A DNA stretch of 64,000 bases from Cyanidioschyzon merolae (taxonomy: Eukaryota): assembly GCA_000091205.1 (NCBI GenBank), contig AP006494.2. The stretch is one strand, 5' to 3'. The notes beneath the pieces were generated by a model. The model was given only the letters and a program-made list of their open reading frames with translations, was not told the origin of the DNA and searched no databases. The position numbers were made by a program, and so were the translations under genes. Positions 3,156-45,194 of this stretch are shown piece after piece (within the stretch, counting starts at the first letter, position 1; the number at the start of each line of letters is the position of its first letter).

Positions 3156-3978
3156 TCCAACGAATGCGCATTTCGAGTCGTCGCAGGCGGTGGCGGTGGC
3201 GATGGCGGTGGATCAGCAGCTGAGGAACGTCGGGGATCGAGTAACCCGCTGTGCCACCAGAGGCGTTGTCGACAACGTGAATGTGCTCTTCGATATCTGG
3301 ACTCGATCTAGGCGCCCAAACAGTTCAAGTTGATGTGTTTAAAATGGATAACCAGTGCTTTCGCTGCACCGGGCACTGGATCCGCACTGCAATGCACAGG
3401 CGCTTGCTCGTGAATCGCGCTCCAGTCGATGCAACGCCGAGAGCGCACTGCACATTCGCCTTCAAACGTTCAGGTCCCTGAGGTGACCATCTCGTTATGA
3501 GCCGTGTTTGGTGCTTCCATGGGCGTTGTGATCGTTGCGTATGTGCAACAAAGTGCGCATCGTGCATCATTTTCGACCCGACAGCAGCGCTGCGTCATTG
3601 TTTTACGGGTGGTGTATGCACGAATGCGCAGACGCACTGCGCGACAGGCTGTGCCTCGAAGAGGGCTCGCGACCTGCGCTGCGGTTGTCGATCATGAAAC
3701 GCAGTCTCTACACGATATCGCAAGCTCGCAGCCTCTCTATCCCGTATAGGAGCGCGCATTTCCGGTACCAGCAGTCGCACGAATCCGGCAGCAGAGGTGC
3801 CCGCGAGCACCGCTGCGCCCGGCAAGGTAATCGGATGGAGTACGTCGACCCGGTTCGTTGAACGGACCTGGCGATCCAGGTGGCTGCAGCGGGCGTTCGC
3901 ATCCCAGCACTCGCACCAGCAGCATCGAGCGTGAAATACCTCATGATGCTGGTCCGAGCGCGCGGGGCACGGTGTCGT

Positions 3979-6108: not shown

Positions 6109-6285
6109 GATCGTTTTCCCTTCAGTACGAGAAGGTGCACTTGTTGCCTGCTGAGGAGCAACGCATACACAGCAGCAGTAGCAGCAGCGTTCTCCGCAGA
6201 GGCGCTCCGGTCGCAACGCCGCGGCCATGGAGACGAGTTGCCAGGTCGCAGCGCCTGCGATCATCGCGCTCTGCAACCTGAACGT

Positions 6286-12330: not shown

Positions 12331-12667
12331 ACGCATCCACGAATTCTCATTACTGCATGTCGAATGTCAAGGCAGTTCATCGCAACAAATTCGGAAAAAG
12401 GATCGCAAGGCAGGAGCAGCGCGACTCGTTCGGTGTTCCGTTCTAATCTGACGCAGGCATTATAGTGCGCTTGGGGTTCAAGAGCTCCTGGTGTGCAGCG
12501 CTCACGACGCTTTCGCTGGGACTGGAGCGTTCCATTCACAGTCTGCACGTTTCGTGCACGCGGAGCAAGACGGAGTTCAGTTCACTGTAGACGCTACTTT
12601 GGCGATTGGGACGGTGTGAAACTGCCTGCACCCGTGTTTCTGCCTCCGAAGCTTCCCACTGGTGAAA

Positions 12668-14218
12668 ATGCAAGCAGCGGCCGCTCTGAGCTCCAGCCAG
12701 AACGGTCCCACGGAAGCGCAAGGGGTTCTCGTCGGGCACCCTGTGCTCCAGGAGGCGCCCATTGAGGCGTCTGTGGAGAGTCAGCTGGAGCAGCTAGCAA
12801 AACGGGAAGATGTCACTGCAAGCCGCGTCTACTACGCTGCGAGAAGCGCAGTGGTGCACATCAGTTCCATGGAGTCGTTGCGAGCAGCGGCTCGTCGAGG
12901 ATTCCGGAAACTATGGCCACCGTTTCCCTACGGCCCCGAGTCACCGGACGACGAGGACGATACCGAGGACGAGGATGCGTCGGCAGCACGTGCTGCCGAA
13001 CCCTCTGAACCTGAGCCAAAGCGTGGACTCCCAGAGCCGCCTCTCGCTAGTCCACACGAACGTCCGGAGGAGGAATGGATCCTTCGGGGAACTGGAACAG
13101 GGTTCTGTTTCGACGCTGACCTCCACATCGTCACCAATGCGCACGTCGTTGCGGGCGCCTCACGGTACTGGGTACGGTTCATCAGCGGTGATCAGGTTCC
13201 AGCACAGGTGCTGGGCCTCGACTCAGAGCATGATATTGCGGTTTTGCAACCGCGCTGGGAGGGCGCATCCAGCGACCAGAGTGCCCCACTCCGTGAGCTA
13301 GCGGCGCTACCATCCGATGCACCACGAACGCTTTCCAACGCGGTGGCTAGCCGCTGGTCGCAGGGTGCGAACCTTACAGTGCGCAAGCGCCTCCTCGAAA
13401 CCATTCAACCGCTCCGTTTCGGTGACTCTACCAAGTTACTCGTGGGTCAGCGCGTATTCGCGATCGGAAACCCGTTTTCCCTAGAACACACGCTGACTGC
13501 CGGCATCTTGTCGGGTGTCGGTCGTGAGGTTGCCTCCCGCCGATCTGGAGGTATTCCCATGTTTGGACTCTTGCAGACCGATGCTGCGCTCAATGCCGGT
13601 AACTCGGGTGGTCCACTGCTCGACTCAAATGGCTGTGTCATTGGGATGAACTGTGCGATTGCGAGTCCTAGTGGAGCCTTTGCGGGTGTCGGGTTCGCGA
13701 TACCGATTCATACCGTTCGACGAGTTGCAGAGGAGATCCTGACGCGTGGCCGCGCTTCTCGCCCGGGTCTGGGCGTCACTTTCGCGCCGACTGCACTCAC
13801 GCGTCGACTGGGTATTCGTCGCGGTGTGCTCATTTTAAACGTGCTCCCAGATGGACCAGCTGCAAGGGCGGGGCTGCGGCCCACCAGGCGGCTAGAGCGA
13901 CTCTATCTCGGTGATGTGATTCTCAGCGTCGATAACCATCCGGTGAACGACGCCGTTGATGTGATGCGCATCCTGCAACAGAAACGCGTTGGTGACACAG
14001 TGAAACTCGCTGTGGCGAATGCATCTGAGATACTCGCGCTGCAGGGCGGTACCCAAGCATGGTCAGACAAGTTGCCACCGGCAATGAACCGAGCGCATCC
14101 ATCGCCTTCGGAGGAAGAGGCCATTCGGGAAAAGTGGAAAGGGCTTCGGGTTCGTGAGGTTACCGTCCAGCTCGCAGACATTCCGAGAAGAGCGTGGCGT
14201 ATCGCTTCGAAACTCTGA
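12668..14218 (+). CDS. DegP/HtrA-type trypsin-like serine protease with a C-terminal PDZ domain
   Basis: Catalytic triad context: His in …HIVTNAHVV…, Asp in …DIAVLQ…, Ser in …GNSGGPLLD…. A PDZ-like region follows (…GVLILNVLPDGPAARAGLRPT…GDVILSVDNHPV…). The N-terminal extension may be an organelle-targeting sequence. The track start is GTG 12662; the ATG is at 12668. Confidence 0.85.
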   Translation: MQAAAALSSSQNGPTEAQGVLVGHPVLQEAPIEASVESQLEQLAKREDVTASRVYYAARSAVVHISSMESLRAAARRGFRKLWPPFPYGPESPDDEDDTEDEDASAARAAEPSEPEPKRGLPEPPLASPHERPEEEWILRGTGTGFCFDADLHIVTNAHVVAGASRYWVRFISGDQVPAQVLGLDSEHDIAVLQPRWEGASSDQSAPLRELAALPSDAPRTLSNAVASRWSQGANLTVRKRLLETIQPLRFGDSTKLLVGQRVFAIGNPFSLEHTLTAGILSGVGREVASRRSGGIPMFGLLQTDAALNAGNSGGPLLDSNGCVIGMNCAIASPSGAFAGVGFAIPIHTVRRVAEEILTRGRASRPGLGVTFAPTALTRRLGIRRGVLILNVLPDGPAARAGLRPTRRLERLYLGDVILSVDNHPVNDAVDVMRILQQKRVGDTVKLAVANASEILALQGGTQAWSDKLPPAMNRAHPSPSEEEAIREKWKGLRVREVTVQLADIPRRAWRIASKL

Positions 14219-14924
14219 AATGTCCGTGAGTCGCCGCTTGTACGGCATGCCTCCATGGGGTCCAGCGGCACCAGTTGCGGGCCCTGGTTACGTGAACGTA
14301 CCGAGAGGCTTTTTTGTCAGACACGGGAGGGTCACTATGCGAACGATACGTTACTCATGAATATGTTCATAAACCCCTGGTCCAGTTGTATGCGATTGCA
14401 GGGTACGTTCGTATTCGGATGAGGCCAACGAGCGACTCCAGCAGGCGACATCGTGCGCTGCGCACCCGGTGTTGTCGTCGACTCGGTCGGTGAGGATTCG
14501 CTGCTGAGGCCCCGCGGTATCGCGCTCTCAACAACCAGCACAAGCTTCGCACGCTGAGCGACAAAAGCGCAGTGCCTCAGCTCTAGAACCTAGATCCTAT
14601 GTGCTCTGTTTCAGTACTGCGTTTCGTGAAAGATGCGTTGAAGAGACGTACCTGAAGGCTCCACCTGGTTTCCACAAAAAAAAAGCGACGCTGGTCCCGG
14701 AAACGCCCTGAATACTGCTGCTGTACGATTCCATCGAACAGGTGCTGGTTGCTCGCCTTGAGCATCGAATGCAGAGGACGCAGGAACACTCGAGGAGTCG
14801 CTCGTGAAAGCGTTCTCTAGGGAGAGCGCTCCGACGCCACGACCAAAATAGACGTTACAGTCAGTGCACCGAATAAAACAGGAAACCGTATTCGTTGAAC
14901 CGAAGGCTGCCACTTGCACGCAAG

Positions 14925-15254
14925 ATGCCTCGTGGTGTCGATAAGGAACACTTACCCACCAAAGTCTGCGAGGTGTGTGGACGTCCGTTTACGTGGCGAA
15001 AAAAGTGGGCTCGATGCTGGAACCAGGTTTCGGTGTGCTCCAAGCGTTGTCAACAAGAGCGACGACACCAGAAACGACAAGAAAAAGCGTCAGACGCGGA
15101 TGGAAGCGTTTCCACGTTTTCGAGTGTCGCTTCGCAGGGTGCACGAGCACTGGCGCTTGCTGCACTGCGGTTTGCGATCGTGGTGGGGTGTCGACAAGGG
15201 TCCAGCGCTGGGCGAACACTTGGCTGGTGTCCTTGGCGACTGGGCATTCATTGA
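14925..15254 (+). CDS. Small DUF2256-type zinc-ribbon protein
   Basis: …[35 protein letters not shown]… matches the DUF2256 signature (LPxKxCxxCGRPFxWRKKW…W…V…CSxRC). The track ORF begins at TTG 14895; the ATG is at 14925. The tail is basic and low-complexity. Confidence 0.5.
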
Positions 15255-15407
15255 GAAGGTGCAGGGGAGACACACACGTTGTGACGGAAAACGTTTTGCG
15301 TCTGCTAAAAAGTTTTAGCGTTCGGGAAACCGGGCGCATCGTGATCGAGTGCAGCGAGAACACCGAACAACCCGCAAACCCTTGCATATGCGAATCTGTC
15401 TTAGCGT

Positions 15408-18011
15408 TCAGGAACTGGTCTCCGCATCCGTCGGTTCGGTATCCGTCGAGTCGGGCGTTGGCTGTCGTTGGACAAGCGCAACTTTCGTGGTGGAACCTGC
15501 CGATTCAGGTGCCAGGTTCTGGTCGCCACTCGGGGGGTTTGTAGCCTCCTCGTGCGAAATTGTGCGACTCTTTTTCTCCGAGAGAATGATCAAGCGCTTA
15601 TTGCGCTCAATGGTGTTCTCGATCGGACATTTTTCCAAACTGATTTTGGGAAGCGATCGATTCGTCTCCACAGGTTCGTTCGATGCTGTTACAGTTACCT
15701 GAACGGCTGGTGTGCCTCGTGGCTGACCGGTCTCCAGGCGGTAAGCACCTGCTATAGCTTGTGGCCCTGTTGATGGCTGCTGCACCGTCGCTGCAACCGA
15801 CAGCGACGGTGCCCATGAAGCATCAGCAGCAGTTGTAGCAGCAGCCAAGGTGTCCGCATCGGCAATGCCCTCTCGACGGTCCAGCCCGGCTGCGGATCGC
15901 AGCAGAGGATTCACCTGGTTCGGAGGCCCGGGATCTTTGGTCATTAGTTTCGAGGCTACGCTTGGCAACTGATGAGCCCGTGACATTCCTGCACTGATCT
16001 GCTCAGTGCCGGGGACTGCTGCTTCCGCAGATCCTCCTCCTCCTCCTCCTCCAGCATCTAATCGGTGCAATGTTTCTGCCCACGGTTCAGGTTGCGTCGG
16101 CACCATGCCCATTACGCCCGGAGCCTGCCCCGAAAAGGCACGCTCACCAAGAGTACGTGTTTCAGGGTAGGCTGCGTCTCGTCGCGACGTCACCTGCGCA
16201 GGTATCTGAGCATGAGCCGGATACGTGCGATGCAGCGGCGGGAAAGTATCCTGACGGCGGCTATCCGGTGGATAAGACAGGCCTTGCGCAGCCGGCGCTG
16301 ACGGCAGTATCGCCTGGCCGGTTGTTTTGGGAGCGCTCCGCCCGGGGGCACTGGTGACTGCCTCACCAGCCTGAAGCGTTGAACACATAGCCCGATATCG
16401 TTCCAGGTAGCTGATATTATGGGGATTCAGACTCATGGCGCGATGGTAAGCACTGCACGCATCAGCAAATTGTCCATAGTTCTCGTAGAGGATGCCGAGG
16501 TCAAACCAGACCTCCGCAAGTCCAGGATTCAAGCGAATAGCCCGCATATACGCATCAGCAGCATCCGAATACTGTTGAGCCTGGTAGTAGAGCACACCAA
16601 TTGAGCACCAGTAACTTGCGTTATTCGGCTCCCGTAATACTGCTTGCTGGTACGCGTTGCAGGCCTCTAAATGCTGCTCACTGAGGGCATAGGCGCGACC
16701 CAACAAATACCAACTATGTGCCCGATTCGGATCGAGTTGAACGCAGCGCCGAAGATGCTCAAGCGCAATGGGTACCTCATTCAGCAAGATGAGCGTCCAA
16801 GAGAGCTGCTGCAGTGCATCGACATCTCCGGGGTCTGCGATGAGCGCATTTTCGAAGGCCTTACGCGCTTCTGCTAAATTTTGGCAAAGCATGTATACGT
16901 GGCCAATCTCGCACCAGGTTCGCCCATCTGATAACGCGGATAGTTCTTCGTCGAGAACCAGGTCGAGGAGCGCGCGGCGAGCGCGGAAGAGGCGCTGTCT
17001 CTCCAGGGTTTCGTACTCTTTCTGAGCCATTCCGAGCACCATTTTTGTGGCAGCAGATTCACGCTGTCGCCCATTGTTTGACCCTGATGGTAGCAGCGGT
17101 CCATTGCCACGAGCTGCGCTCGTATCCGTAGTGAAGGAAGTTGCTCGTCGATTGGCAGTGCTCAGTGGTGCGGTCTCGTTGCCGATACGCAGTGTACTCG
17201 GTTGATCATTTTCGACAGCGTTGCCACTGTGCCGAGTTTTCTTCGTCATAAGAAGCGCTGCGCTACGTTCTTCGACGCGGTATTCAAGAGCCTGTGTGAA
17301 CAGGGCCAAGGCTGCATCATAATCTCGAGCCGCACATTTCAAGGTCGCCAGGTAGAATAAAGCAACATCTCGGAATTCGTCATTAACGGGCAAAAGTCTT
17401 TGGGTGACTTTGTATGCCTCAGCGGCTTCTTCGAGCTGCCCGTATAGCTGATACAGAATGCCTATGCCAGTCCACACGAGGGGATCCTTGGCGCTTTCGG
17501 GATCAAGCTCCATGCAGCGTTGGTAGGCCGCAAATGCACCCGGAATCTTGTGGCGCAGAAGGAGCGCTTTTGCGAGAGCCAACCAGCCCAGACGAAAGCG
17601 TGGGCAGGTTTCCAGGAGGAGCTCTAGTCGTTGCTGGGTTTCCTCCAGATGACCGCGCCGGTAATCAATGAGACAGAGACGAACCAGGGCAAGCTGGGCC
17701 CCAATGTCGGTTTCCAGCATTCTCAGTCGTTCTGGAGACGTGCCCGAAAGGATCGGCTTCGCGATCTGACTGTACATTACTCGAGCTTTCTCAAAATCAC
17801 CAAGGCATTCGAAAAGCAACCCTGTATCCAAGAAAACAAACTGGTTGTTTTCAAGCCGCGACGGATAACAGGACCTGTTCCAGAAATTCCGGCCTGTGGC
17901 AGCGGTACCAGTGCTCGTGGGCTCCCGTTCACTCGCGCTCCCCAGTTCCGGAGATACCCTGTTCAGAGACGGAATCGTATTCGACCACTCTCCCGGCTTA
18001 GGTGCGTCCAT
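15408..18011 (-). CDS. TPR-repeat transcriptional corepressor, Cyc8/Ssn6-like
   Basis: A TPR block …SWYLLGRAYALSEQHLEACNAYQQAVLREPNNASYWCSIGVLYYQAQQYSDAADAYMRAIRLNPGLAEVWFDLGILYENYGQFADACSAYHRAMSLNPHN parallels yeast Cyc8 …FWCSIGVLYYQ…DALDAYTRAIRLNP…EVWYDLGTLYE…. No JmjC domain is present, which excludes UTX. The start is ATG. An internal poly-Gly comes from a (GGA)n tract at ~16031–16051. Confidence 0.8.
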   Translation of the reverse strand: MDAPKPGEWSNTIPSLNRVSPELGSASEREPTSTGTAATGRNFWNRSCYPSRLENNQFVFLDTGLLFECLGDFEKARVMYSQIAKPILSGTSPERLRMLETDIGAQLALVRLCLIDYRRGHLEETQQRLELLLETCPRFRLGWLALAKALLLRHKIPGAFAAYQRCMELDPESAKDPLVWTGIGILYQLYGQLEEAAEAYKVTQRLLPVNDEFRDVALFYLATLKCAARDYDAALALFTQALEYRVEERSAALLMTKKTRHSGNAVENDQPSTLRIGNETAPLSTANRRATSFTTDTSAARGNGPLLPSGSNNGRQRESAATKMVLGMAQKEYETLERQRLFRARRALLDLVLDEELSALSDGRTWCEIGHVYMLCQNLAEARKAFENALIADPGDVDALQQLSWTLILLNEVPIALEHLRRCVQLDPNRAHSWYLLGRAYALSEQHLEACNAYQQAVLREPNNASYWCSIGVLYYQAQQYSDAADAYMRAIRLNPGLAEVWFDLGILYENYGQFADACSAYHRAMSLNPHNISYLERYRAMCSTLQAGEAVTSAPGRSAPKTTGQAILPSAPAAQGLSYPPDSRRQDTFPPLHRTYPAHAQIPAQVTSRRDAAYPETRTLGERAFSGQAPGVMGMVPTQPEPWAETLHRLDAGGGGGGGSAEAAVPGTEQISAGMSRAHQLPSVASKLMTKDPGPPNQVNPLLRSAAGLDRREGIADADTLAAATTAADASWAPSLSVAATVQQPSTGPQAIAGAYRLETGQPRGTPAVQVTVTASNEPVETNRSLPKISLEKCPIENTIERNKRLIILSEKKSRTISHEEATNPPSGDQNLAPESAGSTTKVALVQRQPTPDSTDTEPTDAETSS

Positions 18012-20974
18012 GTTCAGTCGCTGGAATGCTGGAATCGTTCCGCACCAAAAGCACCTCTACGAAACCCGATGGAACCCTCCGAAACACCGAGCGCTGTCGC
18101 TACAACGGCCCTGCAGCCAAGCTGATGCAACAAAGCTCCCACAATATGCGCTCTGGCAGCGCACGCAACCCAGAAGTGACAAAAGTATACAGCTCCTTCG
18201 AGTCGAGTCGCCAGATAAAGTCTCCAACTTCGAGTCGCGAAAACTTCACAGATTCTTTTTCAGAGACAAGGAACAGTCAAGTCTATGAGCATAAAACCGT
18301 CTTCGCAACTTTTTGTGAAGAATTTCAAAAGCGGTATAATCACAGCGCTTCAACAGAGTGCTGCGAGTGCAAACACGTTGCAGCACGCAAGCAACCTGCA
18401 CCGGTGCTCCCAGTCCGCAAACGCTCCCAGGCGAAGATGACCTCCTGCTCCCCTCAGCTGTCGATTTCCTACCAAAACAAAGAGAGCAAACACGCTCTGC
18501 GTGCTGCCGTCCCCAAAACCTGGCGCACACGCTCGCAAACTTCCGGGTACGCACCGCGCGCAAAACAGTGCACGCCAGCGTCCGCTTCAAGAACGCTCCG
18601 TTTCCACACCTCTACTGTACGAATAGAAGTTAAGCCACTGCTCCAGTGTAAAGTCAAACCTCAGCACCACTGTCGGTATCAATATAGATGATACAGAACA
18701 ACAAGCGCTTTTCGTTGTACGTCCCAAAAAGGACCTTTCCCAAAAGTCTCCAGTGAGCAACGCTTCAACTGTTACATGCGAGCTGGATACACATGGAACG
18801 CAGCGCTCGATTCACCGCGAGGCGAACGCTGCCGCGCGGCGCGCAATCTTCGCACCCGCGATGCCTTGACGCGCGCCATCTTACGAGAGCGTCGAAATCG
18901 CCCTTCAAAAACGTGACCATTTGGATGAGACGTGACATCTACGGTGATCCCGCGGATACATCGATCTGTAACGATGCACACGGCGGCAGCGTCGATGACG
19001 GCAACGTCGATAACGACGGCGATGACGGCAACGTCGATGTTGGATGCCAGCGGCGTACGCGTTCTCGACATTCACGCTAAAATATGGGAAGTAGGCGCCA
19101 CAAAGCAAATTTTTCTGGTTGCGCATAGGCTACTGGAATCAGCGGAGAGCACTGTGTTTATGTTCGGGCGCTTCCAGATTCTCTCATACTTAGAGAATCG
19201 ATAACCTTTGGAACAGAGGAACTTGTGGATCGAGAGAGAGCATCCCTGCTGCAGAGCGCAGTGTGCACAACGCGGACGTGTCGAGAGAGACCGCCGCATC
19301 GGTAGTCCCCGCAGCCGCAACTGAGTATAGACGTGTGAGTCCTGTGGCAGGTGATCGCGCCCGTTCGTAATGCTTACCATTGTGATACCCTTCTGGAGAC
19401 TGTGGCGAGCGTCGGATGACCGCTTGGTTCCCAGGCTTGGCGCAGTGCGGCGACATGGAGTTTCGCTCTGGGATCATTCGGGGCATAGTCCATCTTCTCG
19501 GTAAGCGCTACGTGAGACCGAAATAGGATGCAACGTTTGGACAGGCGAGGGAGCTTCGAGGTTCTTGATCATGAACCTTTGACGCGAGCATGAACGCAGT
19601 GTTTCTGGTCTGGCCGTCGTGCGTTCACGTGCACAATATGGCCGGTTCGCTATTTTGTTCATTATATGCGCTGTTCCCCGCCGATTTACCTAGTGGACGT
19701 AACGCGCGACTTGTTCATTATCTTTTTTATTTTACCGCCGGTCCTCTGCGCGCTTTCGACTGTGCAGATTGAGCACCGTCCCGAATGGCGACGACTGCGT
19801 TCATCCTGCGCCTTTCCAAACTAGCTACCATACGCGATGCGGCATTGCTCGCTAGACACAGCTCTCCCTGCAGCTGAATGCCCCGATACCACGTGATTCG
19901 TATTTTGTCTTCCAGTCTACATCAAATAGACTCTTTTCGAGCTTGGAGCGACCGCCGTCCTCCTTGAGCACCAACGATATACCCATTGGCGAATATGCAG
20001 CACCGGCAGCGGGTGCCGGGCACTGCCGAGCACCCAGCTGCGGCACAACGCGACTCTGCAACCAATCAGTACAGAGATGCCTCGCTGATTTCACATGCCT
20101 CCGCTTCTACTTCGAGACACTGCACTTGTGTATGAATGCCCGGTGCTTCCAGGCATTCGAGATTCTTCTAGATTCCAGGGCACCAATCTGCATCTTGATG
20201 AATCTGAATGGACACTTTCATCCGGTGCTGCACGCATGCACGAATGGACACGTGTCCATGCGTGCACAGACAGCACGCATGGACAGCACGCATCCGCATG
20301 CTGCAGTGCCGCTTATGAACTGCGTTGAGCTTGTAGCACCTGGGTATGCTCTTTTACGTTAGGAGCTGCTCGCTTAGAGAAACTCTACCAAGGTAACCAT
20401 TCTGGGCATCTGGGTTTTTTTATGTCGCTTCGAGAGACGGTTTTATGCTCTGGCCAAGTACGACATGACGAATGCTTGGTGTTCCATCGAGTGGGAAGCG
20501 CGCTTTGTGCAGCGTGTACAGCAACGGCGCGCTTCTTCGTCGTAGTTTCGGCGCTCGTCAAGCATGACGAACGTCCGCACACTCTAACGTACCGTTTGCG
20601 CGCATCTGCCGCGTATAGCTATAAACCGTGTGCTGACGACGAAATAGTCCCGCTGGTGGCAGCGACTCGGCAGCGACCTCTGCAGCGTGCGCCGCACTGC
20701 CCGTGCGGAGCCTGCGTTCGCGCCCCGCCGCTGGGATTGCTGTTCAGTGCGTAGTCAGCAAGCAAGAAATAGACGGCCTCGCACGTCCACACTTGCCGGA
20801 CGTTTGCGAGCTACTGGGCCTGCAGCTTGCTAAAAACACTCTGATGGTCGGTTTGAGTGACTTTTGATCTCGTACCAAAGGCACATCCATTGCCTAGAGC
20901 TTTGGGGTGCGTTCCGGCCCCGATAAGCGCCAAGGCGTTTACAGCGAGCGGGACGCGGCAAGCGGGTGTGCTCA

Positions 20975-22573
20975 ATGACCTCTGCAGGTTCCCGAGCTAG
21001 CACCGATGAGGATGTAGGTTTGGAGCGACTCCTGGGACCGGTGCAACGTACCTGTTACGACGCATGGCTGTCCAAATGCCTTGCTGCGCGGTGCGGCTTC
21101 TTCGAGGACGCCTACATCGCGCTACTGGATCCGATCCAGAGGCTGGCAGCTGATTCGGCAACATCGTGCCCGCAACGGCGTGGAGAGCGGCAGCGGTTGC
21201 CGTGTCAGCACGGCGGTTTGTCAGCAGCGATTTCGGACGGCAGCCAGCGGCACGCATCGATACCCACTGTCGACCGAGGTGGCAAGCCAAGCGGAAGCAG
21301 CGCGCCGCACCCAGGCCGTGGCAAGGCGTTCCGAGAAGCTGCTGGCCCAGATTTCGCGTCATCGTCATATTCAGCGTGCGGCGATGTAGACGACGGCGAG
21401 GGCACGCATTTGAATGCCGCGGGGCATCAAACGCTGGTAGGAGGCCAGCGAAACGGGCATAACGGCGCTGGGACTGCGCAACTGCTGAGCCTAGGCCAAC
21501 GAGTACCGCGGTCGTTGCGTGTAAATAGCAGTGGCTTGGACGCGGTGCTCCTGCACGGCACGTACGCTCGGGTCATGGCGCTGCGTCACATCATGGACAC
21601 AGTCCTCGAGCGCCTGCGGTTGAAAGCGGGCGCGAGCCACCAGCCACCGATGCTGCAGTTGCTCTCGCTCGGCGCTGGACTCGATAGTATGCCATTCTGG
21701 TTACTAGAGCGGTCGCGTCAGGCAAGCGTGGCGGCGTCTTCATCACACCGAGAAGTGCCGCTGCCGCAGGTTCGCTACCATGAACTGGATACCGAGCAGG
21801 TGGCGTCGCTCAAGGCGTTGTGCATTCGACGGCAGGCAGCGCTCGCTCGCGCCATCCAAGCACCTGTCGCCGACGTGCAGGCACGCGGTGCGGGAAGCGC
21901 GGACGCATACGCGGGAGTCGCCGTCGCTGGCGCGCAGGCACCCGATGTTGCATCCAAGGTGCAGGTGGTGCTCGAAACCCCGGTGTATGCGCTGATCGCG
22001 GCGGACCTCTGCAGCGGCCGCTCCGTTCTCGGTGCTGCTCTCGAGCGCCTGCAGCGACATGGAGGCATGCGGCGCGAACCGAGCTTCACGCTCATTCTCC
22101 TGGAGTGCGTTCTGGCGTACCTGTCGCCGGCGGATACCGTGAATGTCCTAGAGGCATTGCGCGAGCAGTTCGCGAACCACCCGGCACTGCTGGTGTGCTA
22201 CGATCCGATCGGCCTGGACGACGCGTTCGGTCGCCACATGCAACAACGCCTAGAAGAACGCGGTGCTCCGCTGCAAGGTCTGAATTGCCGCGCGACCCTG
22301 GATGAGGCTGTTCGCAACCTTGAGTCGTTGTTTGCACCTGGAGCGGCATCGAAGCATCCGGGCCGCGGCATGGATATGATGGAGGTCTACCAGCGACTCC
22401 GGGACGACGCTTGCGAACGGAGCAGGATCGAGCGCATCGTTGCACTCGATGAAGTCGAAGAGCTGCGCCTCTTGATGCGTCACTATGGACTGATTTGGGT
22501 GAGTAATGAGCATGCAGAAGTATTTGACTTTTTCAAACCTAGCAGATTCCAAGGCTCAGCGGTCGACGCCTAG
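20975..22573 (+). CDS. LCMT1: Leucine carboxyl methyltransferase (PP2A methyltransferase), LCMT1/Ppm1
   Basis: The N-terminus …RTCYDAWLSKCLAARCGFFEDAYI… parallels LCMT1 …[24 protein letters not shown]…. …LLSLGAGLDSMPF… is the SAM-binding motif (VNLGAGMDT). …FTLILLECVLAYLSPADTVNVL… and …RIERIVALDEVEELRLLMRHYGLIW… match the LCMT1 C-terminus. It carries an insertion of roughly 120 aa at ~21140–21540. The track start is GTG 20966; the ATG is at 20975. Confidence 0.85.
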   Translation: MTSAGSRASTDEDVGLERLLGPVQRTCYDAWLSKCLAARCGFFEDAYIALLDPIQRLAADSATSCPQRRGERQRLPCQHGGLSAAISDGSQRHASIPTVDRGGKPSGSSAPHPGRGKAFREAAGPDFASSSYSACGDVDDGEGTHLNAAGHQTLVGGQRNGHNGAGTAQLLSLGQRVPRSLRVNSSGLDAVLLHGTYARVMALRHIMDTVLERLRLKAGASHQPPMLQLLSLGAGLDSMPFWLLERSRQASVAASSSHREVPLPQVRYHELDTEQVASLKALCIRRQAALARAIQAPVADVQARGAGSADAYAGVAVAGAQAPDVASKVQVVLETPVYALIAADLCSGRSVLGAALERLQRHGGMRREPSFTLILLECVLAYLSPADTVNVLEALREQFANHPALLVCYDPIGLDDAFGRHMQQRLEERGAPLQGLNCRATLDEAVRNLESLFAPGAASKHPGRGMDMMEVYQRLRDDACERSRIERIVALDEVEELRLLMRHYGLIWVSNEHAEVFDFFKPSRFQGSAVDA

Positions 22574-24346: not shown

Positions 24347-27300
24347 ATGACCAGCGGTCAGGGCGGGGGCGGTTCAGCTACACCGGAAGAGTCTTCGGTT
24401 GTCGGAACGCTGCAAACCGCATCGAACGATGCGGTTCAGAGAACGCTGGATCGAGCAACAAAGCGAACTCGTAGGACGGACGCCGCAAACGCCGCTGCAG
24501 CACCGCAAGCACCCACTCGCATAGTGCGGGAAGCTCGTCGTGCAGCACTGGAAGCTCTGAAGCGATTGAACGTGGCGGATGTTGAGGTCGCTGAAGAAAG
24601 CCCAGACACGAAGCCTCCGCGTCGCACTGTTCCAACCACAGCCCTGCAGGAGAATCCGCGCGCACTCTCGCCCGCAGCGGACCTCGAGAAGGATATAGAG
24701 TGGGAGTCTGCTTGGACAGAGGGTGCGGCAGAGCAGCCATCTCCTGTGCAAACAAAAGACCAGCTAGAAGTTGTTCTCGAGCTCGACGAAGAGGGTACAG
24801 ATAGCGCGAGCGGGGTGTCCCGTTCGCAAGCTGACTCCACTGGCTCAGACGCTGATCATAGGGCTGCGAAGCGCCGGCGAGGATCACTTGCAACCAAGCG
24901 AAAAATGACCAAGACATTTTCCGCTGCAGAGCGTGCCAATGCTTTACGCATACATCGCATACATCTTCTATGTATGCTGGCGTCGTCGCTCACTTTCGAT
25001 CGACTTTCCAGTGCGGCAACTATCCAGGCCCGCGCACTCTCCCTAGTTCCATGCGAGGTAATCGAGCGTTTTGACCGAATCCCTGAAGATGCCCTTAGGG
25101 AGACTTCGTCTAGTCTTGCAGAGGCTTTGACGTATTTTGTGGTCTGGTTTGCGTCGAACTACCGGCAGTCATCGTTCCCCTGTGAGGTATGCTGCCCCGA
25201 CGAATCAGGATATTCAGTGCCAGTTCCACGCACACCACATACCCGTCTAGAGCACGCTATGCTGCATGGCTTGGGTGGTGAACAAGAGCTGGTTGCTCTT
25301 GCATGCGCCATGCTACGAGCGTTGCTCGGTCGTTTGAACTTTCAGTCGCAAGCGCGGCCTGAGGGCAAGCGCGTGCAGTCCGCCCCAGTTCCCGATGGCA
25401 GCACTGTGCTGCTGAAGAGATACGGACTCGTGCGATTCGTTGCAGGCCCAAATATAATTGGCCGCAAACCCGAGCACTTGGAACTTGTCGATCAGGGATC
25501 TGGTTTACCGACTTGGCAAGCACGACTTTCGGCCATCCTGGAGCATTGGTTTCCTCCAGCTCCAGCCGATGTGCCTCCATCGAAAAAGCAATGTCCATTG
25601 GAACCACCACTCAATCGGAAACGACCCGGTAAGCCACTGCGGAACTCTCGATCGTCGCACGGTCTACAGCAGAAGCATGCGATGCAGGCACATGGAGTCG
25701 AAGCGCAGCCGCCCGCGGTACACTCGAAGGCGTCGACTTTGGATGCAGACACTGGAGAAGCCTCGTTGCCGCGACGCGCCCTTGAATCGCCGCAAGTGCG
25801 GCAACGTGACGTTCATCATCAGCAGCAGCAAGCTGGACGCGGCCTCTCGACAAGCAAAACCCAAAGAACGCGCCAGAACTGGCTTACGCGCGACAGCAAA
25901 CGTACCGCAAGTGCGCTCGAGTCCGCTGAGCGCTACTCCAATCCAAGAGGCAATACGCGTTCGACATACTTATGGGCGTATCAGATTCAATCGGCTTTTC
26001 TCGCGCCGTGGAGAGTGGGCGTGAACATATCTCCGCAGGTTGCCCATCGTCGCACAGCCGAGTCGAGCGATCGGAGCTCGCAGGCCAGAAAGACGGGTAG
26101 ATTATGGTCCTTGTCTGTTCCTGGTCGATGGAATCTCACGAACGCGGATCCTTACCGAGTGCCGCAATACTGGCTGGAGGTATGGGATCCGACTCAACAG
26201 CACTGGATCCATCTCGATCCGATGCGATGCTTGGTCGACGACCCGCTAGCCGTCACGGTGCTGCCTTGGTGGACCCGTACGACGCGGCCTCTGCCCCGGT
26301 CCGCGGCAACTGGCCAGCGGGATCGGCACCTGAATCCGTCTAAGACAAGATCCCTGAAAGGAGACGTTTCCAACGAACCACGGGAAGAAGACGACGGTGA
26401 CGGTAATCGTATCCAACGACCGAAGCGACGCTCATCAAGGCTGCGTCCCGATGCAACATACAATGAGATGGATGGGCGCAGTGGAGATCGCTCACAGAGC
26501 GAGAGCGACACGGCGTCGAGCGAGCTCGAGACTCCCGAGCTCCCCACGAATCGATGGAAACGGGAGCGTGCCGAACGAGTTGTCCCGTATATCTTCGCGC
26601 TGGAGCATGGATTTGGACGTGACGTCACCCGCCGCTACACAACCCGGTTCCAACCTGTACTCGAGGCTCGCAGTCTTGACGGTCATCGCTACTGGACCGA
26701 GGAGGTGCTCCCAATGCTGAGCCCCTTTCAGCCACGCACACACCTGATTGAAACAGAGCACGACGCTATCGACGACGACGCGTTCAGGGAACGCAGCACG
26801 CTCTGGAATGCACTGGACAATTTGGAGCAAAATGAATTTTGGGGATTACATGAAGCGGAACCCATTCCTCGATCCATTTCTGCGCTGAAAAATCACCCCG
26901 CTTTTGTGCTTGAGGAACATTTGAAAAAGTATGAGGCGATTCATCCGAAGCTTGCCATCGGAAACATCCAACGCATCCAGCCAAACGGACGGATTCAAAC
27001 TATACCTGTCTACCGTCGACGAGATGTTCACCTGTTGCATACCCGGGAGCGCTGGTTTCGTGAATGCCGAATCGTTCGGGAGAGCGAGCTGCCCTACAAA
27101 ATCGTGCAATCGTTCATGTCCCGTTTTCGACAACGTCGTGAAGAACGACGTAGAGAACGGCGCCAGCAAGCACCTGAAGAGCTCGAGGATTCGTCGACTG
27201 CCACCGCAGGTCCGACGGAACTATTCGGTATTTGGCAGACGGACCCCATGCCGCGACCTCGAGCTGAAAATGGTATTGTCCCTCGATGTGGCCTGCGGGG

Positions 27301-27889
27301 CAATATCGAGCTCTGGACGCCGAATCACCTGCCTCTGGGAACAACGCATGTCGACTTGCCTTTCGCTGCCATGTTTGCGCGCCGTCTCGGCTTTGACTTC
27401 GTACCAGCGATGGTCGGTTTTGAGGTACGAGCATGCGGCTTCGTTCCAGCTATTCGCGGTGTCGTCGTCTGCACCGAAAACGCTGCAGCGCTTACGGATG
27501 CATGTGAAGCAGAGATCAAGCGGCGACGAGAACGAGCCGAAAAAAGGATGCGAGAGGACGCGCTGCGACGCTGGCGACAACTCATTCGGACTATTGTAGC
27601 GAAAGAGCGTTTGAGGAAACGATATGGCGGATTTCAGGTCCAGGACACGAATGCAACGTTCTCCAGTCGCAAAGCGGGCAAGCAGACGTCTTCATCGTCT
27701 GCCGCGGAACCCGCGAAACGAGAACGCGTGCCTGCCGCAACCGCTGCAGGAGCAGACGACGACGCTGATCAGCGTGCCGCCCATGAACACGAGTGGGTCT
27801 TTGTGGGCGCTTCGAATTCCCAGGATGCTCTCGGGCGCAAGCAGTGTGCACTCTGTGGTCTCTGCGTCACCTACGAGTCTCTGTTGTGA
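24347..27889 (+). CDS. XPC: XPC/Rad4 nucleotide-excision-repair DNA-damage recognition protein
   Basis: A transglutaminase-like region (…WLEVWDPTQQHWIHLDP…) and the C-terminal BHD region …GIVPRCGLRGNIELWTPNHLPLGTTHVDLPFAAMFARRLGFDFVPAMVGFE… parallel Rad4/XPC (…NxxGNIEL…P.GxVHL.L…A.KLGIDYA.AVxGF). The ATG is at 24347. Large low-complexity inserts are present. Confidence 0.8.
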   Translation: MTSGQGGGGSATPEESSVVGTLQTASNDAVQRTLDRATKRTRRTDAANAAAAPQAPTRIVREARRAALEALKRLNVADVEVAEESPDTKPPRRTVPTTALQENPRALSPAADLEKDIEWESAWTEGAAEQPSPVQTKDQLEVVLELDEEGTDSASGVSRSQADSTGSDADHRAAKRRRGSLATKRKMTKTFSAAERANALRIHRIHLLCMLASSLTFDRLSSAATIQARALSLVPCEVIERFDRIPEDALRETSSSLAEALTYFVVWFASNYRQSSFPCEVCCPDESGYSVPVPRTPHTRLEHAMLHGLGGEQELVALACAMLRALLGRLNFQSQARPEGKRVQSAPVPDGSTVLLKRYGLVRFVAGPNIIGRKPEHLELVDQGSGLPTWQARLSAILEHWFPPAPADVPPSKKQCPLEPPLNRKRPGKPLRNSRSSHGLQQKHAMQAHGVEAQPPAVHSKASTLDADTGEASLPRRALESPQVRQRDVHHQQQQAGRGLSTSKTQRTRQNWLTRDSKRTASALESAERYSNPRGNTRSTYLWAYQIQSAFLAPWRVGVNISPQVAHRRTAESSDRSSQARKTGRLWSLSVPGRWNLTNADPYRVPQYWLEVWDPTQQHWIHLDPMRCLVDDPLAVTVLPWWTRTTRPLPRSAATGQRDRHLNPSKTRSLKGDVSNEPREEDDGDGNRIQRPKRRSSRLRPDATYNEMDGRSGDRSQSESDTASSELETPELPTNRWKRERAERVVPYIFALEHGFGRDVTRRYTTRFQPVLEARSLDGHRYWTEEVLPMLSPFQPRTHLIETEHDAIDDDAFRERSTLWNALDNLEQNEFWGLHEAEPIPRSISALKNHPAFVLEEHLKKYEAIHPKLAIGNIQRIQPNGRIQTIPVYRRRDVHLLHTRERWFRECRIVRESELPYKIVQSFMSRFRQRREERRRERRQQAPEELEDSSTATAGPTELFGIWQTDPMPRPRAENGIVPRCGLRGNIELWTPNHLPLGTTHVDLPFAAMFARRLGFDFVPAMVGFEVRACGFVPAIRGVVVCTENAAALTDACEAEIKRRRERAEKRMREDALRRWRQLIRTIVAKERLRKRYGGFQVQDTNATFSSRKAGKQTSSSSAAEPAKRERVPAATAAGADDDADQRAAHEHEWVFVGASNSQDALGRKQCALCGLCVTYESLL

Positions 27890-40157: not shown

Positions 40158-41043
40158 ATGGCGGAGCCGCTGGCTCTGTTTGCGCTGGATCTGCAGCAGC
40201 CAAGCGCCTTGGTAGCCGCAACCTCAGGTTATTTCACGCAAGAGGAACCAACTGGTACGCGGGACTTGGTGCTGGTCCGCCAGAGTGGGAGCTACGGTGC
40301 GACAATTGAGTGCTGGGCTTATAACGCGGAACTGGGAAAACTACAGCGAGTTCAGGCGACGAGTGCCGCTTTCGCCGAGGCTTCCAACGGGGTCACGTTC
40401 GCGCATATTTGGCACGTTGCTCCGGTACGCAGCTGGAGTGGACCTGATCACTTGCTTGTGGTTTCAGACTCTGGCACGCTGAGCTTGCTGAAATGGTGCG
40501 GCTCGGAGGCCGTATCCGCGGGTAGCATTCGTGCTTCATTGAGGCCGTGGTGCGTCGAGCAGGCTGCTGCCGCTGATGCCGATGTCACATACGACATTGG
40601 CTGGAAATGCGTCAGCAGCGCTGTCTTCAGCAAACCGGGAGCACGAGCGAGTCGCCCCGGTGCTTTCCTAGCAATCGATGAACAAAGTCAAGCCTGTGCA
40701 CTGGCTTCGTTGGACGGATCGATCTGTGCATTTGCGCTTCCGCAGCACACCTCGGAAGCCTCGACTGCATCAAAGGCTGGTCATCGATACTCGGGCAAGA
40801 AACGGAATCCAGCGGGAACCGTACTTTCTCGATCAGCGACGTCTGTGCAGACGAGTCGCGAGAATCCTGTCCGTCGTTCATCTCGACGCCGTAAACGCCC
40901 ACTCGGTGCGGACGCAGCCTCCAGCGTATCGAGTGTGGAAGCTGGGGCGATGCACCCCGGCAGTCAGCGTGCGGCTAGCGACAGGCGTGCCTCGCGTCGA
41001 GACAAGCTGACGGAAGGTACCAGCACCCATTTCACTGATGATA

Positions 41044-41080
<37 letters not shown>

Positions 41081-44000
41081 TGATAGTGATGATGATGATG
41101 ATGATGATGATCATGACGATGATACGAATGCCCGGCTCGGAGACGGTGCTCCATCTGGTGACGCAGACGAAGACGGCCATGAGGATCCCGGTCGAACGAC
41201 GAGAGGCTTCTCCGCCCCCATCGAGTGGTCGACCGAAGATCGAATGGCGCTCGGTGTAGGCACATGCTTCGGACTTGTCGCGCTACCGTGGTCTCGTGCA
41301 GAGAACGAGTCGCTGTTTGTCATGCTCATGGATCGCTCACTATCGACAGCAACAGTGGCGCCCGGACCTGATCGTCGCTTGCTGCTCCTGCTGGTCGACC
41401 GTAACGCTCAAACCGTACACGCCAAGGCGATGAGCAGCCCGCTGGACCCCAGTGCATATGGCATCTATGCGCTCTCTGACGGAATGCTTCTCATTGTATC
41501 GCGCTCCACCGTTGAAGTCTGGTGCTTTCGCGGTACCCCGGAAGCGAACGCGAATGAAGAGCCATCGTCAGGGTTTTCGGCAAATGCGGGGACGTTCTCC
41601 TGCCTCGCGAAGCTTCCACACCGAGCGCTGCTTACCAGGAGGTCCTCGACGAGAGACGGCGCTCATGATATCACGGTGCGTAACGCCTTGTTCGACAGCG
41701 CACACCTCCAGGCAAACGGGGAACCTTCGGGGAGCGTTCTCATAACAGCAGCCGCGCTCTGGGAGGCAGCTTGCTCAAGGGAACAGCTTTGCGTGCTCCT
41801 TGGCGACGAAGATGGCTATCTATTCCGGTTGACGATTGTGCTCAGGCCCGTCGAGGACGGCATCCAAAGCGAAGCACTTTCCGTGCGGATGTTGGGACGC
41901 TTCCACGCACCCGTTAGCGCTCTCTGTTTCCTGGGCGGTGATGACATTGCAGCAGCCGCGGTCTTTGTGACCCTGGAGCAAGGGGATCATGCCGTTGTGC
42001 TCCTCGATAGGCCGCAGCTGCAAGCTGGGAAGCGCGACTCGCTTCCGGTCGCATCCGCGCTGCCGGATACGAGCAGCGACGGCACCTCTGCGTCCAGAAC
42101 GGAGCACCTGGCGGGCCTTGACGACGCCATGAGCAACAGCAACAACACGCTGAGCATTGTCGATACGATACCTGGTCACCATCCGGTGATCATGAGTTTG
42201 CTGTTGCGGACGGATCGCTGCTGCCAAGCTGAAGCAGCACAAACTGGCTGCCTGCCGACCTGGCAGTTACTGGGAGCGTCAGCTACCGCTGATCCCAATG
42301 AAACCCCCCTCCGTATCTTCGTACCAATGCGGGATACAGTAGCACTGGCACAGTCACCGGTGGACGGTCGAGCACAGCGGGTCTTCGCCCTGCCGCCGCT
42401 GCTCCAGCGTTCTACCACGGAACCGGCTGCAACGTTGCCGCCTGAATCAGTCTCCGATACCGCAACTGTTGCTCTCCTGGTGCTCTCGTTTACCCAGCAG
42501 ACGCGAGTGTTTCGCTTCCAGTCCCTGGCGCTTCACGAGGAACACACGCTCGGTTTCGAGCACAACACGAGCACCGTTCATGCAGCACTGCTCTGCAGTG
42601 ACTGGTCGCGTAGCGCTTGCTGCTGGGTTCAGGTTCACAGCCATGGGGTGCGCTTGATCGGTGCGGCGTCCTCGGACTCAAGAAGCGCCTCTGTGGTCGA
42701 CGTGTACACCGCCAGCACGCAGCAGCCCATTGTAGCGGCCGATAGCACTCTATCCCAAGTGCTGCTGCTCCTCGCCGACGGTCAACTGGTCTACCTGGTA
42801 GCTTCCGACACCGATTCGGATTCTGACAAGCAATCCAAAGTCAGAGGTAACGCTTCTCCGCCGGCCATGGAGCTCGGATTCGGGCCCCGGAGTGCTTTAC
42901 AAAGCGCTGCGGCGGCTAATGCGCCCACCGAAGCTCCTCCACGAATACCACCGTCGCCAACGAGTCGTGCTGTGGCCTGCTGCCTGGTGCCGCTGGATAA
43001 TCCATCATGGTCCTCGTATTTGGTTTACGTCGAAGCGGGTGCATCTCCAGTGCTGCGCATCTGTCAGGTGCCGGAGCGAGCGACGCACGCTCCCGTGCAG
43101 TGCCTGTACAGCGTGCTTCTGCCGCAGCTGCCAACCGGGATAGCTGCAGTGCACACCGCAGGCACAGCGTCGCTTGTCGACCTCTGGGCAGGCCTCGAAG
43201 ACGGTACCTTGCTGCGCGTTGAGGCGGTAGATGTGGCCGAGCTCCAGATGACAACAGAGCGAGGCACACCACGTCTGCACAGGTATCACCTCGGAGCGGC
43301 AGCCGGTCTGCGCCTGCGTCGCGTGCTGGTGCCACCAGCGCTCGGCACAGAAGCGTTGCTGGTGTTGGGCTCGAGTTCCTGGTTGATACCACTCTCGTCG
43401 TCGTCGTCGTCGTCGTTATGGACGCATCCGTACCCCATTCACGCTGGGCAGCTACTCGATGCCGCCAGTTTTCCCCTGCCGCAGATGTGCTCCACCGTGG
43501 ATCCCGAGACGCACTCAGAGGCTGTTGCGGTGTTTCCAGCGGCAACAGCGATCGCAGCGCTCAGCGAACAGGGTCGCACGCTCGAGTTTCTCAGCTTTGC
43601 CGCCGACGACTCGAGCTCTAACCTGCTCACCATTCGCCCAGTGTCGAAGCCGCAGCCAGCAGATGCTGCTGCATCAGGAACCACTGTGTCACGGAAGGTT
43701 GTCCGCAAACTCTGCTGGATCTTTCCCAATGAACTTGCCGCCATTGCGATAAGTACAGAAGGCGAACGCGGACCCCAGGTTCAGTTGCAGCTGGTACAGG
43801 TCCCCGGATCAGAACGGGTAGCGTCGCAGCACTTGTCATCGAGCGACATGGAGTCGCATGCTTTCTGGCAGCATTTGCGGCTTGACGGAGGTGTGCGTAT
43901 CGCCGGTGCACCCGCCTGGGGCGGTATACGCGTCACCAGTATGATCAGCGTCGATTTACCGTCATTATCATTACCATCGTCAGATACAAAGAACGAACAG

Positions 44001-45194
44001 CAGCTTCACGCTGCCGGTCGAATGCCTGTTGCCCTGCTGGTTGCCGTTGCACCCCCAGCTGCTGAAGCGGAAACCGCGCCGGAAAGCGGCGATGTAGCGC
44101 GGGCGTTCCTCCTGACGTATCTGGTGGAGCGGCAGGCAGCGAGCGATGCGCCCTGGAAACTCGTCCTGACTGAGCGCTTATCGTTTCCCGAATCCATTGG
44201 TGACCTATCTAGGGTTGGGCGGCACCTCGTGGTTGCCCACGGCAATCGTCTGGCACTCTATACGCACACGCGTTGCGGCTGGCGCCCGTTGACCGTGAGT
44301 AAGCGCGCACTTGCCTCTCCTATCGTCGCACTGACCGCTCACGAAGCACTGTGTCGTATTTTCGTCGCTAGTTTACATCACGGCATTAGTTTATTCAAGT
44401 ACTATGTACAAGAGAATCGACTTGTTCTAGTGGCTGAGGACATGCAGCGGCGCTGGATCCATCGGCTCCAGCTACTCGATGCAGATACCGTTGTTGCCGC
44501 TGACAAGTTCGGCTCCATCGCGGTGCTGCGTCTGCCGGTTGAGTCCAGTGCAGCGATTGAGGGTGATCCCAGTTACGGGCGTCTGGCTGAGCGGTACGGA
44601 GCCAGTCCCGAGTCAGCGCGTTCTTTTGTGGCGCGTCTCATGCCCGAATGCTCGGTCCATGTCGGTAGCGTGGTGACGAGTCTCCATGTTTTCGGCTACG
44701 GAGCCGCCACCGATCCAGATGCAACCCCAGCATCCGCACCCCGATCATGGACAGAAGCGGAAGCAATCCTCTACGGTACCGTGAGTGGAGGATTCGGGAT
44801 GTTGATTCCTTTTCGAACGCGAGCCGAATGGGATATTGTGCAGCGCCTCGAACGAGAGCTGCACTTGTTCTGGGCGAAATGCTGTGCACCCGGGCACACA
44901 ATGGATGCAACGCATACCCGGAACCTGCTGCACGCGTCCGTGCTGCGCTTTCAAGGAAGGATCGAACCGACACGCCATGTTGTCAACGGGCACTTGTGTG
45001 GATTATTTGCCCTCTTGGATCCTGAGACACAGCGGAGCATTGCGGCACGTGTGTTGGGTCTCCAGGAACCGTCGACACCAAGCGAAGAACAGCGAGCGCT
45101 GACGCTCCTGCTCAGCACGTTGCATCGACTGTATGCACGGGTGCTGTGGCCGCTTGGACACGAGGTTCAGGCGGCTCCGTTGCATGCGACGTAA
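40158..45194 (+). CDS. SF3B3/Rse1-like splicing factor (DDB1/CPSF160/SF3B3 beta-propeller family), 1678 aa with large inserts
   Basis: The C-terminal CPSF_A region …QENRLVLVAEDMQRRWIHRLQLLDADTVVAADKFGSIAVLRLP…ILYGTVSGGFGMLIPFRTRAEWDIVQRLERELH…VVNGHLCGLFALLDPETQ parallels human SF3B3 …NENQLIIFADDTYPRWVTTASLLDYDTVAGADKFGNICVVRLP…LVYTTLSGGIGILVPFTSHEDHDFFQHVEMHLR…VIDGDLCEQFNSMEPNKQ. A mid-protein block …LVLSFTQQTRVF…GF…VQVHSHGVRLI is shared across the family. The ATG is at 40158. Inserts include a ~30-residue poly-Asp tract. Confidence 0.8.
41044..41125 (+). repeat. Coding (GAC/GAT)n microsatellite that encodes the poly-Asp tract inside the SF3B3-like gene
   Basis: gacgacgacgacgacgacgacgacgatgacgatgat… read directly. 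It translates to DDNDDDDDDDDDDDDDSDDDDDDDDHDDD. Confidence 0.95.

Follow-up and report, generated by a model that had tools for sequence, protein, structure and literature searches.

Cyanidioschyzon merolae carries, at 14925..15254 (+) of the 64,000-nucleotide stretch of contig AP006494.2 that was analysed here (the window), an intron-less nuclear gene for a protein of 109 amino acids (aa) with a DUF2256 domain (Pfam PF10013). The reading that is favoured with some confidence is that this real and annotated gene represents an old algal DUF2256 lineage of cyanobacterial source, and that its product would serve as a zinc-dependent adaptor for nucleic acid or for a photolyase-type partner. The gene and its Pfam family assignment were both already known, and little is gained from this locus as such. 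Of greater interest is the family, an uncharacterised photolyase-linked zinc ribbon kept from bacteria to algae and a liverwort, which ranks among the commonest domains of bacterial small proteins (10.1101/2024.06.19.599710). The analysis links DUF2256 quantitatively to photolyase/cryptochrome gene clusters, and phototrophic eukaryotes retain it under purifying selection.

The gene, its reading frame and its product

The coding sequence is complete, from an ATG at 14925 to a stop codon at 15252..15254. Its product is identical over the full length (100%) to a protein of C. merolae 10D, which is on record as "hypothetical protein, conserved" (BAM80707.1 / XP_005536743.1) and as "DUF2256 domain-containing protein" (UniProt M1VD95, with the gene placed on an 859,119-bp chromosome). 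The open reading frame (ORF) is a genuine intron-less nuclear gene that had been annotated before; thus, the suggestion of a reading made from the sequence only, that this might be an overlooked small conserved protein, has to be dropped. Upstream of the ATG, an in-frame stop lies approximately 16 codons away with no ATG in between, which indicates that the protein has no N-terminal presequence. As that reading had stated, the stop codon is located 153 bp from the stop of a convergent gene, which encodes tetratricopeptide repeats (TPR).

Two longer ORFs, 14914..15318 (134 aa) and 14975..15544 (189 aa), overlap the DUF2256 frame, and their greater length is the argument for regarding one of them as the real gene and the DUF2256 frame as not expressed. 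However, from 14925 to 15544 all three forward frames are open for 110-190 codons in a GC-rich stretch, and the length of an ORF is therefore a poor guide to coding in this region. Neither of the longer ORFs has a Pfam match at E <= 0.01. Their stop positions and lengths vary between the orthologous loci of other species, and frame +2 is interrupted by stops.

The orthologues used in these comparisons (123 and 108 aa) are those of Cyanidiococcus yangmingshanensis (locus L001) and of a third Cyanidioschyzon-type lineage found in hot-spring metagenomes (L002-L005). In the first 50 codons of the three orthologue pairs, the differences at codon positions 1/2/3 amount to 9/6/29, 7/4/25, and 8/5/21, that is, substitutions gather at the third positions of the DUF2256 frame. 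The proportion of nonsynonymous differences (pN) ranges from 0.09 to 0.13 and that of synonymous differences (pS) from 0.69 to 0.92, with synonymous sites saturated. The bias towards third positions and the low pN against a saturated pS show that the DUF2256 frame evolves under purifying selection. Codon-usage scoring of the three frames was too weak to discriminate on 109 codons. The sequence-only reading was right in considering the longer ORFs spurious, and the chance that one of them is the translated gene is negligible.

The DUF2256 domain occupies residues 7-44 (14943..15056, +), as determined by the Pfam match, a 68-sequence alignment, and an AlphaFold2 (AF2) model. The match to PF10013 covers model positions 2-39 of 40 and scores 70.5 bits (E = 1.3e-19), well above the gathering cutoff of 25 bits; the N-terminal fragment of 56 aa alone scores 72.5 bits. 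The motif from which family membership had been proposed is present, and the Pfam search which had been recommended as a check confirms the assignment far beyond chance.

The cysteine pattern of the family, CxxC ... CSxxC, is complete. Thirteen residues are invariant in the 68-sequence alignment (L10, P11, K13, C15, C18, P21, F22, W24, R25, V35, C38, S39, and C42), and the aromatic and basic core RPF.WRKKW...W is present, with K26, W28, and W32 conserved in at least 90% of the sequences. The four invariant cysteines, namely C15 (14967..14969), C18 (14976..14978), C38 (15036..15038), and C42 (15048..15050), all on the plus strand, are the presumed ligands of a zinc ion, a prediction based on the fold model and on clan membership. 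A fifth cysteine, C31 within the sequence WARCW (codon 15015..15017, +), is a lineage signature that the protein has in common with eukaryote-type and cyanobacterial DUF2256. Residues 1-56 include 15 Lys/Arg and 5 Asp/Glu.

The alignment-based AF2 model of residues 1-56 has a mean predicted local distance difference test score (pLDDT) of 86.8. In the model, a beta-hairpin (residues 12-14 and 21-23) bears the first CxxC and is followed by the WRKKW..W loop, and a basic helix of residues 40-55 (15042..15089, +) begins at the CSKRC knuckle and closes the conserved module. A full-length model from the single sequence had a mean pLDDT of 55 with a low-confidence tail; it was unusable and the model of residues 1-56 was used instead.

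Conservation with the Cyanidiales orthologues extends to about residue 57. The remaining tail (residues 57-109, 15093..15251, +) evolves fast and includes one weakly hydrophobic stretch. No alignment with Cyanidiococcus was obtained for it, and the one with the metagenome orthologue is weak. No recognisable domain and no aligning homologue outside the Cyanidiales were found. The fact that the tail is open provides weak evidence for constraint, since all three frames are open across this region. The 53 residues are treated as weakly constrained. A possible derivation of the tail from a second Cys-rich domain, which is found in eukaryote-type relatives (see below), was considered, but the resemblance is a vague one (R.LGW vs. 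GGLW) and the idea was not adopted.

Eukaryotic distribution and origin of the gene

In all three Cyanidioschyzon-type lineages the gene order SRP68–GNAT acetyltransferase–GrpE–DegP–DUF2256–TPR(-)–...–Rad4 is kept. The DUF2256 gene is thus older than the split of these lineages, and a recent transfer specific to C. merolae is excluded by this synteny. The composition of the gene is ordinary and bears no sign of transfer. Its GC content is 0.567 (0.56-0.62 in the neighboring genes) and its GC content at third codon positions (GC3) is 0.50 (0.54-0.67 in the neighbors).

When 1.84 billion representative proteins were scanned in full with HMMER, 1732 matched at E <= 1e-3. Apart from the two Cyanidiales orthologues, which rank first, the best 150 are mostly sequences of 90-460 aa that carry the motif WE[RK]CWDEV[TS]TCSK[SR]CN, which is shared with named algae; the label "eukaryote-type" used here is based on this shared motif. 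The third-best match is a protein of the liverwort Riccia sorocarpa (KAL3682142.1), encoded on a contig of 52 Mb. Other carriers named by the profile search are Chlamydomonas reinhardtii (chromosome 17), Scenedesmus, Haematococcus, Sanguina, and two species of Coccomyxa, as well as Tribonema, an ochromonad (Ochromonadaceae), and Tetraparma. The named eukaryotic carriers are all plastid-bearing phototrophs, and the contigs with their genes range in length from 9.6 kb to 52 Mb and are mostly at least 0.17 Mb long.

The gene of Chlamydomonas (CHLRE_17g733174v5; L086, 3001..3454) spans 454 bp for a product of 84 aa. It is split within the zinc ribbon, between WRKV and WENCW, by a GT..AG intron of approximately 199 nt. 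Based on the named carriers and on this intron, the family is well established in the nuclear genomes of phototrophic eukaryotes. The earlier statement that DUF2256 occurs only patchily in eukaryotes is an understatement, as the best matches are mostly of the eukaryote type, with green algae, a liverwort, and ochrophytes among those named.

A recent, lineage-specific acquisition of a bacterial gene, as had been suggested for C. merolae, was weighed against these data. The family is indeed overwhelmingly bacterial by number, as had been said. In addition, the Cyanidiales keep some residues of bacterial type (A29 and R41), and hidden Markov models (HMMs) built from bacterial (n = 102) and from eukaryote-type (n = 132) domains score them equally, with 76-79 and 78-80 bits, respectively. 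On the other hand, the synteny in three lineages with saturated synonymous sites, the purifying selection, and the ordinary GC and GC3 contradict such a transfer. Moreover, the best database matches are eukaryote-type proteins, including those of the liverwort and of green algae, and the Cyanidiales are monophyletic in 497 of the 500 bootstrap replicates of a neighbor-joining (NJ) tree. A recent transfer is thus considered very unlikely, and the case shows that such a transfer into a eukaryote should not be read from a "bacterial-type" Pfam label.

With regard to the older history of the gene, the most economical origin seems to be an ancient transfer from the cyanobacterial ancestor of plastids, which is proposed with moderate confidence. 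Two lines of evidence point to it, namely the C31 signature and the restriction of the named carriers to phototrophs. The column of C31 is Cys in all three Cyanidiales and in 103 of the 132 eukaryote-type sequences, compared with 8 of the 102 bacterial ones, six of them cyanobacterial. When a bacterial-type query was used for the retrieval, so that residue 31 introduced no bias, C31 turned up in the two cyanobacterial loci (Synechococcus L060 and Leptolyngbya L079), whereas the 78 non-cyanobacterial loci all lacked it (Fisher p ~3e-4, by hand calculation). In the NJ tree, which is based on 41 columns, the Cyanidiales are placed within the eukaryote-type group.

Several points weigh against this origin and keep its confidence moderate. 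The cyanobacterial signature is a single residue, and the search that supplied four of the six cyanobacterial C31 sequences was biased in favor of it. The tree of 41 residues is split on this point: in the bootstrap replicates, the neighbor of the Cyanidiales is of the eukaryote type in 48%, bacterial in 37%, and mixed in 15%. The phylogeny which had been proposed as a test of bacterial origin thus gives firm support only for the grouping of the Cyanidiales themselves. The equal scores of the two HMMs are uninformative.

Consequently, two other histories have to be taken into account, an ancient gain with a donor outside the cyanobacteria and a series of independent transfers into different algal groups. 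The tree does not separate the donors, the fifth cysteine is found also in one sequence of Verrucomicrobiota and one of Bacteroidota, and the algae differ among themselves, with Coccomyxa retaining the bacterial KYCS and the chlorophycean algae having TCS. Against these observations, all cyanobacterial sequences sampled have C31, the 78 other loci of the unbiased retrieval lack it, and all named eukaryotic carriers belong to plastid-bearing lineages, which argues against a donor outside the cyanobacteria. Such alternative histories are therefore regarded as rather unlikely, and the inheritance from the plastid ancestor is preferred.

Eukaryote-type proteins often extend beyond the DUF2256 domain. 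At least 46 of 148 (e.g., P0030, P0048, and P0050) have a second, C-terminal Cys-rich domain with the consensus GQKxCxxCxKxVDLLIRC..W.MVCGKCW..SGGVVDGD..HPxYRYGGLWKNR. No Pfam model corresponds to it and a profile search of the PDB gave no meaningful match. Its fusion to DUF2256 suggests that the two domains are linked in function. The second domain is also found alone, as a protein of approximately 100 aa, in green algae (Micractinium, Chlorella ohadii, Cymbomonas, Myrmecia, and Symbiochloris) and in Tribonema, and alone again among fungi, in several Dothideomycetes and other ascomycetes (Oleoguttula, Vermiconidia, Salinomyces, Elasticomyces, and Mollisia).

A few proteins have unusual architectures. 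In P0059, a ZPR1 zinc finger with a jelly-roll module lies between DUF2256 and the second Cys-rich domain, and in P0046 an F-box follows DUF2256; both could be chimeras of assembly. P0150 and P0117 contain two DUF2256 domains in tandem.

N-terminal extensions are present in 96 of the 148 eukaryote-type homologues (e.g., P0004, P0030, P0047, P0048, and P0069), and some of them resemble signal peptides with ASAF-like motifs, as in the plastid targeting of diatoms. These extensions were not taken to show plastid targeting, since 70 of the 96 extended sequences still have a Met where the bacterial proteins start, and many of the extensions may thus be read-through of the 5′ untranslated region in ORFs derived from transcripts, or alternative starts.

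Photolyase neighbors in bacteria and the predicted function

The genomic context of bacterial DUF2256 genes was examined in a sample of 80 loci with flanks of 4 kb. In 26 of them a photolyase-family gene is located within 4 kb, most of these genes abutting DUF2256 on the same strand, as the sequence-only reading had anticipated for bacteria. In detail, 19 loci have a gene with the domains DNA_photolyase and FAD_binding_7, 11 have a DPRP gene (photolyase-related, FeS-BCP type), and the 26 have one or both. All 21 genes of the DNA_photolyase + FAD_binding_7 type share the strand of DUF2256. Those upstream end 30-57 nt, or about 40-45 nt as a rule, before the codon of the first Cys, that is, at the start codon of DUF2256, which suggests translational coupling. 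By contrast, the fusion of DUF2256 to photolyases that had also been mentioned was not seen in approximately 270 sequences examined, a set which does not amount to an exhaustive search.

The linkage recurs in Alpha-, Beta-, and Gammaproteobacteria, Bacteroidota, Planctomycetota, Chloroflexota, and Melainabacteria. It is far above the frequency of chance adjacency within 4 kb, approximately 0.4%, which is a rough estimate from about two photolyase genes per about 4000 genes in a genome. Among the partners located downstream are true DASH cryptochromes, with scores of 430-509 bits (cutoff 317). Islands with the order divergent photolyase-like gene–DUF2256–DASH cryptochrome–DPRP, all on one strand, are found in Winogradskyella (L045), a metagenome-assembled genome of Alcaligenaceae (L062), and Zwartia (L070), at about 2400-7000. 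The upstream photolyase-like genes of these islands, with products of approximately 500-520 aa, do not reach the cutoff of any NCBIfam subfamily and may represent a subfamily without a name.

Two observations led to the proposal of a role in photorepair: the bacterial homologues often lie so near to photolyase-family genes that co-translation is probable, and each of the eukaryotes named as carriers is a phototroph. In the proposed mechanism, the basic zinc ribbon and the basic helix would form one module of the first ~56 residues. The WRKKW..W loop and the basic, Trp-rich surface would contact nucleic acid and/or a protein of the photolyase/cryptochrome family, and the protein would act as a small zinc-dependent adaptor in the response to light or UV damage. 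Binding of nucleic acid or of a photolyase partner, with a predicted role in algal photorepair, is by analogy to the bacterial loci the most likely function.

Candidate partners for such an adaptor are at hand in C. merolae. Five proteins of the photolyase/cryptochrome family of this species were purified by Asimgil and Kavakli (2012), as cited in a review of algal cryptochromes (PMC8591175). Several of the C. merolae family members could be partners of the DUF2256 protein.

Some results count against a photolyase-linked role. About two thirds of the bacterial loci have no photolyase-family gene within 4 kb, and none was detected by Pfam among the 17 largest ORFs scanned in the window. The latter is expected for a eukaryotic nuclear gene, since the order of such genes would not carry this signal. 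Furthermore, the searchable literature on DUF2256, PF10013, UCP037205, IPR017136, COG4338, and the accessions contains no functional or expression data. A paper on the blue-light transcriptome of Vibrio cholerae does not mention the family.

The protein may instead be a general small binder of nucleic acid or zinc, with a eukaryotic role unrelated to photolyases. It is possible, for instance, that it is a factor associated with RNA or ribosomes, like the TRASH-clan fingers FCS and L24e, or an adaptor in transcription. The fold neighbors (the RNA-binding FCS finger, L24e, and DksA), the bacterial loci that lack a photolyase-family gene, and the eukaryotic fusions to unrelated modules (the Cys-rich domain without a Pfam model, F-box, and ZPR1) are all in favor of this explanation. 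However, the bacterial linkage to photolyase-family genes recurs across phyla at a frequency far above the rough chance figure, and every named eukaryote with DUF2256 is a phototroph. Such a general role is therefore a real but lesser possibility, and the adaptor with a photolyase or nucleic-acid partner is preferred.

A bolder proposal can be put forward only tentatively: DUF2256 could be a conserved accessory subunit or partner of photolyases and cryptochromes, for example a zinc-ribbon module for the recognition of DNA lesions or the recruitment of the enzyme. It would then have come from the cyanobacterial plastid ancestor and have been retained by red and green algae, bryophytes, and algae with plastids of red origin. 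If this is true, the second Cys-rich domain of the stramenopile fusion would be a further component of the photolyase pathway. Should the linkage prove functional, it would add a conserved component to light-driven DNA repair or to blue-light signalling. C. merolae, whose genes are open to modification through homologous recombination, is a convenient eukaryote for tests of this kind.

Neighboring genes and comparison with known systems

The two genes that flank DUF2256 are syntenic anchors and were found in all the orthologous loci (L001-L005). Upstream, a DegP-like serine protease (Trypsin_2 + PDZ by Pfam) is encoded at 12662..14218 (+), with a provisional start codon. Downstream and in convergent orientation, the gene at 15408..18011 (-) encodes a protein of 867 aa in which Pfam recognises TPR families only.

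The rest of the window contains ordinary eukaryotic nuclear genes, which besides the DegP-like protease include a UAA transporter, SRP68, a GNAT acetyltransferase, GrpE, and Rad4/XPC. There are also WD40, Myb, MYST acetyltransferase, RSE1/DDB1/CPSF160-family, Nar1-like, and CobW genes. The homologue of Rad4/XPC, the damage sensor of nucleotide-excision repair, lies at 24347..27889 (+), 9 kb downstream of DUF2256, and this linkage is kept in the two other Cyanidioschyzon-type lineages. The RSE1/DDB1/CPSF160-family gene (40158..45194, +) is located 25 kb downstream. In a eukaryote, the nearness of these two genes to DUF2256 is probably a coincidence. Three large ORFs have no Pfam match, at 20966..22573 (+), 49538..50941 (-), and 60035..60820 (+). 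The second of them overlaps the 5′ end of the WD40 gene at 50691..53291 (+) and may therefore be spurious.

In Pfam, DUF2256 is joined with YacG (DUF329), zf-FCS, MYND, HIT, and L24e in the TRASH clan (PMC4047054). A sequence search of the PDB with the DUF2256 profile gave no meaningful match, and the Pfam matches to zf-HIT and MYND were weak and under their cutoffs. In a Foldseek search with the model of residues 1-56, the top four hits were chains of YacG (probability 0.80-0.95); thus, as judged from the model, the gyrase inhibitor YacG (PDB 4tma) is the nearest solved fold and the C. merolae module shares its zinc ribbon. The other fold neighbors are the RNA-binding FCS finger, ribosomal protein L24e, and DksA. 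In hhalign, the alignment with YacG of Escherichia coli has a probability of 75% (E = 2.5e-5) over 26 columns and brings together CxxCG and CSKRCQ.

It is this resemblance in fold that would speak for an inhibition of type II topoisomerases in the manner of YacG, directed for example at an algal organellar DNA gyrase and pausing DNA transactions after damage. Nevertheless, residues 1-56 do not match Pfam YacG (PF03884) even at E <= 10, whereas E. coli YacG scores 85.8 bits. The tail of YacG after the zinc finger, which reportedly contacts GyrB in the published complex, is acidic and contains Trp (LIDLGEW...). DUF2256 has a basic helix in its place, with the alignment ending at CSKRCQ, as well as an insertion with the WRKKW..W loop. 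Given the missing match and the replaced tail, the C. merolae protein is not a member of the YacG family. The lack of an organellar presequence counts against an inhibitor of organellar gyrase, and the bacterial partners of DUF2256 are photolyase-family genes and not gyrase genes. A gyrase-directed role is accordingly judged improbable. FCS-type fingers (L3MBTL2, PDB 2w0t; FLZ/DUF581 of plants) show no significant sequence match to DUF2256. Within large eukaryotic proteins, the FCS and FLZ families mediate contacts with RNA or with other proteins.

Compared with the eukaryote-type proteins (Chlamydomonas, Riccia, and Tetraparma GMI19391.1), C. merolae has in common C31, a non-aromatic residue 37, R46, and the basic helix after the last Cys. 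At three positions the Cyanidiales depart from the eukaryote type, with Ala29 in place of Glu, Arg41 in place of Ser, and Gln43 in place of Asn. They also lack the second C-terminal Cys-rich domain, and their gene is intron-less, unlike that of Chlamydomonas.

The bacterial proteins of the family (PF10013; "UCP037205") stand alone with 45-65 aa, whereas C. merolae has the 53-residue non-conserved tail. Residue 31 is Asp or Val in most bacteria, and the bacterial Tyr37 is replaced by Val/Thr. The gene of C. merolae is monocistronic, nuclear, and placed among ordinary eukaryotic genes without a photolyase-family neighbor. Yet the domain is the same, with all the invariant residues present in both, and the N-terminus MPRGV.K..LP.K.C is common to the bacterial and the C. 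merolae proteins.

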